Source of the DNA: a bacterium
GTDB lineage: Bacteria; Bacillota; Clostridia; Peptostreptococcales; Anaerovoracaceae
NCBI GenBank assembly: GCA_963626305.1
Contig: CAVFWT010000033.1
Coordinates: 1-54,624, forward strand
Length of the DNA: 54,624 nt
Reading direction: 5' to 3'
This document shows, piece by piece, positions 10,225 to 13,399 of this stretch (the stretch's first letter is position 1; the number at the start of each line of letters is the position of its first letter). A program made the translations under genes and the position numbers. The notes under the pieces are model-generated. The model searched no databases, was not told the DNA's origin, and saw nothing but the letters and a program-made list of their open reading frames with translations.

Positions 10225-10301
10225 AGCACCTCCTTCTGCTGTAAATACTCGGATTTATTATAGGGGAGAAATCCTATTTTTACCAATATAAAGAAACTAT
10301 A

Positions 10302-10342
10302 CAAGCCCATGCGGTCGCAATAATTGCGGCAACATGGGCTTG
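10302..10342 (-). terminator. Hairpin downstream of AEC transporter, possible terminator
   Basis: caagcccatg...gtcgcaa-taa-ttgcggc...catgggcttg inverted repeat. Confidence 0.5.
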
Positions 10343-10368
10343 AAGAAGTCTGTGTGAATGTATATCGA

Positions 10369-11301
10369 TTAGATGAACATTGTGACAATCGGTAGCGTAA
10401 AGATGGACAGCAGCGTGGTGAGTGCATAACCGCGGCTGCACAGGTCGGCGTCCAGATTGTAACTCTCGCAGGCGATAACCGGCATACTGCCGTTCGGCAT
10501 GCCGTAGAGCAGAACGAAGATTCCGAGGACGGTCGGGTCGAAACCGAGTCCGTCAAAGTGGCGGACAATGAATGCCACCGCGATGGCAACGACCAGGAGC
10601 TGGAAAAGCGCAAATACGTAGAGCCTTACATCGTTGAAGACGCGCTTTAGGTCGCACTGCGCCAGCGAGCATCCCGTGATAATCATGGTCAGTGGGATGC
10701 AGGCATCAGATACATAGTCAATGCAGCTGACCGCGATACTCGGCAGATGAATGTTAAATACGATGATGAGAAGTGCAATGAATACACATGCGAGTCCCGG
10801 ATTCAGCAGCGAGCGGATGGTGAACGGCGTTGTATCTCCTGCCATTTTCTTTAGCGTATGCGTTGCATATGTGTAGAACAGGAGGTTGAACCCAAGTGCA
10901 TAGAACGTGATGTGGAACGTCTGATTTTCGCCGTAGAGCGATTCGACCATTGGAATTCCGATAAAAGCAGTGTTCGCGAAGACGAGCATGATGGTTACAA
11001 TTTTCTGTTCGTTGCCAACAACGCCCATGAGCCTGGAAACGAGCGGCCCAAGAAGGAGCGTTAGCCCATAGAAGACGGCAGTTAGAATTGCATCTTGAAT
11101 GATCATGCTTCTAGAAATACTGCCGACGCCCCCCAGTGCGGTCGATACCATCAGAAGTGGGTTAAAAATATTGACGACCACTGTGGACAGTTCCGCAGTT
11201 CCCTGCTTGGTCAGCCATTCTTTACGGAAACAAAAAAATCCTACAAAAATTAAACAAAAGAGAAGCACGAGCTTCTCGAGAATGATAATACTGTTGCTCA
11301 T
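10369..11301 (-). CDS. AEC (auxin efflux carrier) family transporter
   Basis: About 10 hydrophobic segments, FANTAFIGIP and GMP motifs, TTLLSIFTLP C-terminus. Confidence 0.88.
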   Translation of the reverse strand: MSNSIIILEKLVLLFCLIFVGFFCFRKEWLTKQGTAELSTVVVNIFNPLLMVSTALGGVGSISRSMIIQDAILTAVFYGLTLLLGPLVSRLMGVVGNEQKIVTIMLVFANTAFIGIPMVESLYGENQTFHITFYALGFNLLFYTYATHTLKKMAGDTTPFTIRSLLNPGLACVFIALLIIVFNIHLPSIAVSCIDYVSDACIPLTMIITGCSLAQCDLKRVFNDVRLYVFALFQLLVVAIAVAFIVRHFDGLGFDPTVLGIFVLLYGMPNGSMPVIACESYNLDADLCSRGYALTTLLSIFTLPIVTMFI

Positions 11302-11377: not shown

Positions 11378-11440
11378 GGGCGGTGCAGTACCCGGATGGA
11401 AATGTCTTGCAGAATATTTCCTCCGGGTACTGCACCGTCC
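11378..11440. repeat. Long inverted repeat (hairpin A), apex TATTCTGCAAGAC on the minus strand
   Basis: gggcggtgcagtacccgga(t)ggaaat / atttcc-tccgggtactgcaccgtcc; gtcttgcagaata at 11404-11416. Confidence 0.9.
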
Positions 11441-11576
11441 TTTGTCACATAAGTGCCTACGATAACTGCTAATGCGTTTTGGAAAACATATATGAAGAAG
11501 CACGGATATTGATCTTTACGATAATGGTAGATATTGTGGTGATGCGATGATATAATCGATTAGACATGCAAACTGA

Positions 11577-11872
11577 ATGAATAAAAACCATTAACACTTC
11601 TAGTAGGATTAACGGGTAGTATATCTTATGCCCTTTTGAGTTTTAGCAATTGTTTGATTGTTAGAAGGAGGAAATTGCCAATTTGGATTCCAGTGCTACT
11701 TGCTGGAAGTTTATGTATAATGTCAATCCTTTCTGTTATCACAGATATACTTGTGGAAGGAGATGGTAGTTTTACGCCTATGTGGATTTATCTTGCGATT
11801 ATGACGCTTGCATTCACACACAACACTTATTTGGCAAGGGCATCTAGCAATCAACAAATAAACGATGAATAG
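11577..11872 (+). pseudogene. Small AT-rich membrane protein, probably frameshifted near its start
   Basis: The frame of ORF 11636-11872 is open and hydrophobic back to 11585 (KPLTLLVGLTGSISYALLS). ATG 11577 is out of frame across an A5 run; adding one A gives MNKKPLTLL.... Confidence 0.4.
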
Positions 11873-11887
11873 ATATTTGAAATTTAA

Positions 11888-11988
11888 AGAATCACACCCC
11901 TTATTCCAAAATTATTCTGCAAGACTATTTTGGAATAAGGGGTGTGATTCTATTCTGTAAGACCATTTTGGCGGTAGGTGTGTGCTTT
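11888..11988. repeat. Perfect 25-bp inverted repeat (hairpin B) plus degenerate 38-bp tandem duplication
   Basis: 11888-11912 is the exact reverse complement of 11927-11951, with loop tattctgcaagact. 11913-11950 and 11951-11988 match at 29/38 positions by manual count. Confidence 0.9.
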
Positions 11989-12073
11989 TATTCTTTTGCA
12001 ATCAACCCAGAAAGATGGTATTATTTTTGCATGTGGTACAATGTTATCAGAGTATAGAATTCTACAGGACTGA

Positions 12074-13399
<1,326 letters not shown>

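Follow-up and report, generated by a model that had tools for sequence, protein, structure and literature searches.

Hairpins A and B, two long inverted repeats that flank a short AT-rich segment between an AEC-family transporter gene and the enolase gene (eno), are copies of a dispersed family of intergenic palindromic repeats and represent two of its subfamilies. With moderate confidence, we favor the combined reading that the two hairpins stand for subfamilies of tip-conserved repeats spread non-autonomously by a trans-acting single-strand nuclease or transposase, and that the interval in which they lie is what remained after deletion.

Hairpins A, B and B' in the window

The window, which is the whole stretch of 54,624 nucleotides analyzed here, comes from assembly G000 (1.76 Mb, 84% complete) and was compared with eight congeners (G001-G008). 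The features in and around the interval are listed below.

10369-11301, minus strand: AEC-family transporter gene, left flank, transcribed away from the hairpins
11378-11440, minus strand: hairpin A, subfamily A, with its tip 13-mer at 11404-11416 on the minus strand and orthologues at the same locus in G005 and G006
11441-11584, no strand assigned: decayed AT-rich DNA, without a match to the G005 cargo proteins
11585-11872, plus strand: 3' gene remnant of 95 codons (called ORF 11636-11872), the parent gene being that of a 145-147 aa membrane protein
11888-11951, plus strand: hairpin B, subfamily B, with a perfect 25-bp stem, its tip 13-mer at 11913-11925 and, like A, orthologues at the same locus in G005 and G006
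11951-11988, plus strand: B', a 38-nt tandem copy of the tip and right arm of B, without a left arm
11996-12024, plus strand: promoter-like site upstream of eno, a host sequence that is similar in congeners without hairpins
12101-13399, plus strand: enolase gene (eno), right flank, transcribed away from the hairpins

The nearest named homologues of the AEC protein are labelled Eubacteriales and Clostridia. The arms of hairpin A (11378-11401 and 11417-11440) are 24 nt in length and 88% complementary, while those of hairpin B (11888-11912 and 11927-11951) are 25 nt in length and 100% complementary, with hairpin B having the top score among the 74 long inverted repeats of the whole G000 assembly. 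Folding z-scores were −8.5 for hairpin A and about −12 for hairpin B, and the tip folds as TCT-GNA-AGA. The exact tip 13-mer is found at 11404-11416 (minus strand), 11913-11925 (plus strand) and 11951-11963 (plus strand), and these are its only three exact copies in the G000 assembly. The stems of A and B score 8 of 48 against each other, compared with 23 to 31 of 48 for each stem against its own subfamily in relatives. Coordinates, arms, 13-mer orientations and fold all agree with the preliminary description, which had reported two hairpins with unrelated stems and an identical apex. The third 13-mer that it had noted is indeed an exact copy starting at 11951, but is not free-standing; instead, it begins the tandem copy B', which is identical to the tip and right arm of B at 29 of 38 positions and ends in a T-run ahead of the −35-like box of eno. 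The stem of hairpin B is perfect in G000 while the B copies in relatives have bulges, and the G000 stems are cleaner overall than those in relatives.

A 13-mer with two mismatches at 13398 was considered as a further family member and was rejected upon finding no match with the covariance model R1 described below. The segment 13398-13460, directly 3' of the eno stop, contains this 13-mer together with a 9-nt match to the left arm of A and forms a separate hairpin before the terminator; the feature was not seen 3' of eno in the eight congeners.

A repeat family with a conserved tip and divergent stems

Exact copies of the 13-mer, counted in 60 relatives, numbered 8 in G005 and 17 in G006, with 0 to 3 copies in the others being at the same level as a reversed control. 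Of the 25 copies in G005 and G006, 23 occupy the tip of a hairpin that measures 60-65 bp (arm score of at least 12), the two exceptions being a truncated copy and a copy at a contig end. By contrast, among 3000 random G000 positions only one attained such an arm score, and none of the 139 exact matches at other loci did. The idea that the motif also sits elsewhere at the apex of long inverted repeats with variable stems is therefore borne out. The stems sort into four subfamilies, which we named A-D. Alignment of 23 copies revealed 15 invariant columns around the tip, and stem cells were paired in 88% of cases with two-sided changes in 18 of 24 pairs, although shuffle figures for this pairing are overstated since the aligned copies are related.

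Covariance model R1, built on the tip of G000, G005 and G006 so that a second tip class can escape it, finds the family in five of the nine genus genomes (G000, G001, G005, G006 and G007). A fifth stem type is present in G001 and G007, in which a variant tip pattern is matched 17 and 8 times, respectively, and the number of copies ranges from 2 to 20 per assembly. The family is absent from G002, G003, G004 and G008. The three best assemblies are among these four non-carriers, which fall together on one side of a 100/100 branch in a midpoint-rooted tree of eno alone, and one loss of the family is therefore the simplest reading.

Structure of the tip

Constant throughout the family is a tip of 13-14 nt on an AAAT/ATTT-type closure, in which a mini-stem of 3 bp and a loop of three bases are accompanied by a short unpaired stretch that begins with ATT. 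In G001, the tip occurs as TCC-GNA-GGA besides TCT-GNA-AGA, and this compensatory T-A to C-G change at the loop-closing pair supports the tip fold proposed previously. A second tip class, carried by the same stems, has GCC-NNN-GGC or GGC-NNN-GCC with GAA, AAG, AAA, ATA, AAC or ATT as the loop, and a GNA loop is not required across the wider family. The proposed apex thus holds as a fold but not as an invariant GNA sequence. The unusual stability of GNA triloops, invoked in the same proposal, depends on a C:G closing pair (PMC3201870), while the closing pair at the tip in the window is T:A.

On the GNA strand, G-T mismatches exceeded A-C mismatches by 23 to 8 in 24 hairpins of G000, G005 and G006, whereas the count was 6 to 7 in 24 hairpins of G001 and G007. 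Strand choice from G-T wobble was rejected, and we draw no inference on the active strand because the excess did not recur. Tips that are nearly or fully symmetric were seen at G007:C175, G007:C119 and G006:C64, consistent with template switching erasing an asymmetric tip.

The AEC-eno interval among congeners

The AEC-eno interval is hairpin-free with a length of 325-357 nt in G001, G002, G003, G007 and G008. G004 likewise has no hairpins there and has lost the AEC start (the 5' end of the gene and its upstream region are missing at G004:C5 relative to G002, G003 and G008). In the presence of hairpins, the interval measures 643 nt in G006, 858 nt in G000 and 2940 nt in G005. The G006 interval is gene-less and contains C, B and A together with the tail that is left of a second, collapsed B, while that of G005 consists of an A-B pair, three genes and another A-B pair. 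In G005, the A and B of a pair are separated by a short spacer with the cargo (2.2 kb, 36% GC) outside the pair, and each pair lies in one copy of an exact direct repeat of 289 bp, which begins upstream of the AEC gene and brackets the cargo. The cargo genes encode a 239-aa frame without a family match, a membrane protein and a subtilase, presumably resembling a secreted peptide/immunity/protease unit. Within this cargo (G005:C13, L051:3190-5238), the 239-aa frame has a hydrophobic N-terminus and no Pfam match, and only 3 homologues were found for the 146-aa membrane protein. At a second G005 locus, an exact 129-bp repeat holds A.

In the G000 interval, A is followed by decayed DNA over 144 nt, then by the final 95 codons of the cargo middle gene, B and B'. 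Positions 11585-11869 match residues 55-146 of the intact G005 gene, the middle one of the three, with 54% identity, and the frame upstream of the remnant in G000 is full of stops. The membrane-protein cassette of the preliminary description is therefore a gene remnant, the 3' two-thirds of a broken membrane-protein gene. Because the intact gene lies in a G005 cargo between 289-bp repeats with A and B, the window interval most likely represents what deletions left of an older arrangement of hairpin, cargo and hairpin, a history that rests on G005 as the single comparison genome.

The alignment across congeners, which had been suggested as a way to see if the interval is invariant, showed variation in length, hairpin content and gene content. 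Neither of the two sequence-level outcomes named there as refuting the proposal, a motif without enrichment at hairpin tips and an invariant interval, was thus observed. However, the claim that A and B are paired sites for inserting, exchanging or inverting the 450-bp segment is not supported. The orientation of A, B and the membrane-protein gene is identical in G000 and G005 (the two genomes holding the gene). In G005 the A-B pair does not enclose the cargo, and what it encloses in G000 is a broken gene; furthermore, most arrays are gene-less and no recombinase or nuclease gene was found beside a hairpin.

Arrays, gene ends and polarity

Copies of the family are intergenic and occur singly or in arrays of alternating orientation with recurring spacers. 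A two-hairpin module is 152/162 identical at two unlinked G006 loci. At the rlmH end, a hairpin is present only in G001 and G007 among eight genomes compared, and at the fba end one is present in G006 and none in G004, G005, G008 and G000. Local tandem copies with microhomology junctions are common, as in B', the 67-68 nt units of G001 and G007, and the collapsed B of G006, with the junctions of partial copies falling near the tip.

The position of copies relative to stop codons was scored for 38 distinct hairpins with an arm score of at least 15, a threshold at which weaker A- and D-type copies dropped out. Thirteen of the 38 lie within 60 nt 3' of a long-frame stop, about 11 of which are independent with two pairs being orthologous, and all 13 have the GTC/GGC strand in the transcript; ten of them start −2 to +6 nt from the stop. 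In convergent gene pairs of G006, both genes meet the GTC/GGC strand first, on either DNA strand, indicating that hairpin polarity follows transcription and not replication direction. Replication polarity was also ruled out by the existence of both orientations within one array. The shared polarity of the 13 stop-adjacent copies points to a transcription or RNA role. Hairpin B is a counter-case in that it lies 15 nt after the remnant stop in the opposite orientation, with a frame too short for stop-codon scoring, and the junction of the remnant stop with B is probably a deletion product. The other 25 of the 38 copies are not near a scored stop, and several stand behind an ordinary terminator. 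Neither A nor B was called as an intrinsic terminator under a loop limit of 8 nt that works against both, and the flanking genes diverge. An Rfam scan returned 21 matches up to E 5, all far below the gathering cut-off.

At G001:C232 1-240, the end of G001:C77, G001:C17 and the end of G007:C175, a stop-adjacent family hairpin is followed by other tandem arrays. These are made of unrelated GC-rich hairpin units of 45-75 nt that run off contig ends, and part of the G007 array matches G004:C37.

Cargo beside hairpins elsewhere

A module with a 32-codon hydrophobic frame, which we take to be type I toxin-like and which has no NCBIfam match, adjoins hairpins seven times in G001 and G007, and the same module was found without a family hairpin at 11 of 11 other loci inspected. 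YefM/YoeB-like and YafQ-like genes each adjoin single hairpin clusters. Because the module is present both with and without them, hairpins travel with cargo at times but are not needed.

Mosaic arrays in which hairpins bracket the 32-codon-frame module were observed at G001:C37 (L248/L416), in C17, C28 and C258 of G001, and in C104 of G007. The same arrays hold a conserved non-coding block of ~350 bp, and G001:C37 has two modules in tandem 3' of a DNA-methyltransferase-like gene. Beside a hairpin pair at G006:C65 (L056:10925-13044), YefM and a truncated YoeB-like frame are followed by a DUF6036 nucleotidyltransferase gene and an HTH gene.

Searches for a putative partner enzyme and for relatives beyond the genus

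A co-occurring Y1/HUH or tyrosine-recombinase gene, as looked for on the suggestion of the preliminary description, was not found beside a hairpin in the fragmented assemblies of the genus. With Y1_Tnp (PF01797), no Y1 HUH gene flanked by hairpins was found in nine genus genomes, of which the carriers are 80-87% complete. None of G000, G001, G006 and G007 gave a match that was credible, and G005 and G002 yielded only fragments with no hairpin nearby, the one in G005 presumably from an IS200 TnpA. A Y1_Tnp match with an E of 0.16 in G006 was discarded owing to an internal stop and no credible frame. Tyrosine recombinase (PF00589) gave 21 matches in five genomes with no hairpin at the 19 loci scanned, and no gene beside a hairpin was found for GIY-YIG (PF01541) and DUF559 (PF04480) in nine genomes or for GxxExxY (PF13366) in five. 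None of the 14 GIY-YIG loci scanned was hairpin-flanked, the other 4 of the 18 being UvrC-sized frames in genomes without the family, and the small GIY-YIG gene of the genus is single-copy in 9/9 genomes without flanking hairpins. No hairpin was present within about 1.5 kb of the scanned tyrosine-recombinase, GIY-YIG or DUF559 loci, and R1, which may miss the second tip class, had 0 matches over 41 enzyme-related loci. Neither a target duplication nor a conserved cut site was seen among the copies. Such absence of an enzyme is weak evidence, as the carriers reach 80-87% completeness and many of their arrays run into contig ends, where a gene flanked by repeats would be missed.

Scans of species genomes (29 of 64 parts) gave 121 loci, with hairpins only at those repeating the G005 and G006 places. 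Metagenomes gave 0 loci in one scan and 16 in another, and viral sequences gave 0 and 47, with no hairpin among them; plasmids and phages gave no match. A pattern search of 400 family genomes found exact multi-copy matches only in G005 and G006. With R1, 150 family genomes yielded 6 weak single matches and 150 order genomes yielded one, a plain AT-rich hairpin, while the G001/G007-tip pattern had 2 single matches in 400 class genomes, neither of them a hairpin. Judging from these sequence searches, the repeat family is apparently confined to one genus with no convincing member outside it. In another genus, long hairpins sharing a branched tip were noticed as a small array at G032:C35 about 10250-10500 (L221); this tip begins and ends like the family tip, and the array is the only locus of its kind in G032.

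Explanations of the repeats and of the interval

In the mechanism that we favor, a trans-acting single-strand nuclease or transposase would read the folded tip and thereby spread non-autonomous hairpins. Such a tip-reading enzyme is suggested by conservation of the tip rather than the ends, together with modules that are nearly identical although their loci are unlinked. That copies with a conserved tip are dispersed to unlinked gene ends argues against a terminal-repeat transposase and for a protein reading a folded strand. The literature provides precedents: Ssn nucleases for single-strand repeat cutting (PMC11893778), and IS608/ISDra2 as well as group 3 TnpA-REP, which needs a G in the three-base loop, for loop reading (PMC8266576). 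Stem covariation may have arisen largely via arm-to-arm template switching without selection on each pair being needed; template switching can create and repair stems, and the clean stems in G000 are what it would leave (PMC8794818). As for the window, two deletions could have converted [A B]-g1-g2-g3-[A B] into A-g2'-B, with a slippage duplication then generating B'. A more far-reaching version, in which a single-strand nuclease or recombinase, undescribed and not of the RAYT type, would recognize and cut the tip and plant hairpins behind stops, at times with neighbor genes carried along, strikes us as unlikely. The same doubt covers its extension, by which the G005 cargo with its 289-bp duplication and the small-ORF modules of G001 and G007 would together represent a dispersed cassette system in Clostridia.

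The copies behind stop codons raise the possibility that the hairpins act in RNA as a 3'-end stem-loop (a terminator, an exonuclease barrier or a protein-binding site), being kept by selection, copied by recombination and read at the tip by a host protein. This would explain why 13 of 13 stop-adjacent hairpins put the GTC/GGC strand in the transcript and why polarity follows transcription at the G006 convergent pairs, and an effect on translation has been reported for REPs that lie within 15 nt of a stop codon (PMC12306157). However, A and B lie between divergent promoters and are not terminator-like, B has the opposite orientation after the remnant stop, 25 of the 38 copies are not near a scored stop with several behind an ordinary terminator, four congeners have no hairpins, and no Rfam family reached the cut-off. 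We thus consider this explanation rather improbable, and it is compatible with a tip-reading enzyme. The cassette system of the preliminary description, with A and B as attC- or origin-like sites at which an enzyme inserts, exchanges or inverts DNA between or beside them, is more doubtful still. It is opposed by the lack of inversion between G000 and G005, by the position of the G005 cargo outside the A-B pair, with a 289-bp duplication on its flanks that takes in host promoter DNA, and by a broken gene as the G000 insert, as well as by the module without a hairpin at 11 other loci, the lack of an integrase near a hairpin, and the variability here of the ends that are conserved in attC. In its favor are the foreign low-GC cargo between hairpin pairs in the G005 AEC-eno interval, the seven small-ORF modules beside hairpins, the YefM/YoeB-like and YafQ-like genes near clusters, and the partial-copy junctions near the tip. 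Finally, the palindromes could have neither a dedicated enzyme nor a function and be multiplied by replication slippage, template switching and RecA-type exchange, as the common local tandem copies with microhomology junctions would allow. Yet slippage fails to account for copies at gene ends that are unlinked, and a tip conserved in five genomes while stems diverge beyond recognition would be left unexplained, making this the least credible option.

Regarding the favored mechanism of a tip-reading enzyme, the short defined substrate and the five-versus-four presence pattern in one genus provide a handle for finding a partner protein; if found, the enzyme would be new both as a sequence-specific tool for single-strand DNA and as a way of capturing cargo. 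In its absence, the family would simply add to the uncatalogued repeat families, with no more than a decayed remnant in the window.

Comparison with known systems

No description of the family was found in the literature searched, in which subscription journals are largely missing and supplements are not covered, and this genus-restricted repeat family is apparently undescribed so far. Most of what has been characterized of REP-type repeats and their enzymes comes from Proteobacteria, and a tag at the foot of the hairpin defines them. The closest known elements are REP/BIME/REPIN with RAYT (PMC6006769, PMC8266576, PMC2817692). The present family shares with them multi-copy intergenic imperfect palindromes of similar size (REP 21-65 nt, PMC6006769), the division into several subfamilies within a genome, inverted dimers or alternating arrays, patchy presence among relatives and many copies after stop codons. 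It differs in having 2-20 copies per assembly instead of hundreds, no linked Y1 gene found, a host of a Clostridia lineage and a conserved part that is the tip, without the GTAG/GTGG/CGTC foot tag. By the rule given in PMC6006769, GTAG/GTGG (or CGTC) lies 0-2 nt from the hairpin foot, whereas a foot tetranucleotide on either strand within 6 nt of the foot was found in 2 of 38 distinct copies, which is chance level.

Integron attC sites are structure-based sites with variable stems and conserved ends that are directly oriented and bound intact genes. The family likewise has structure-type sites with variable stems, and accessory or toxin-antitoxin-like genes near some copies. By contrast, its ends are variable with a conserved tip, A and B are inverted, orientations are mixed, most arrays are gene-less and no integrase is nearby. 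Clustered hairpin repeats are also shared with the NTS/Ssn-related motifs of the Ssn GIY-YIG nucleases (PMC11893778) and with CGTC-tagged repeats (PMC3733652). An Ssn-type likeness extends to repeats read as single-strand DNA in one orientation and to one tip strand that starts with GTC, but the SRM pattern published in PMC11893778 is matched by 0 of 38 copies and the GIY-YIG gene is not hairpin-flanked. A short conserved core at the tip is found as well in REPs nested in long palindromes (GTAG-15 and CGTC-1, PMC3733652), with the difference that the core here is a 13-nt asymmetric tip rather than a REP dimer and that the outer stems form several divergent subfamilies. Taken together, the family likely behaves like REP/BIME-type repeats, as a variant rather than a member, and not as a dedicated gene-swapping switch, extending REP-like genomic behavior to Clostridia with the information moved from the foot to the tip.
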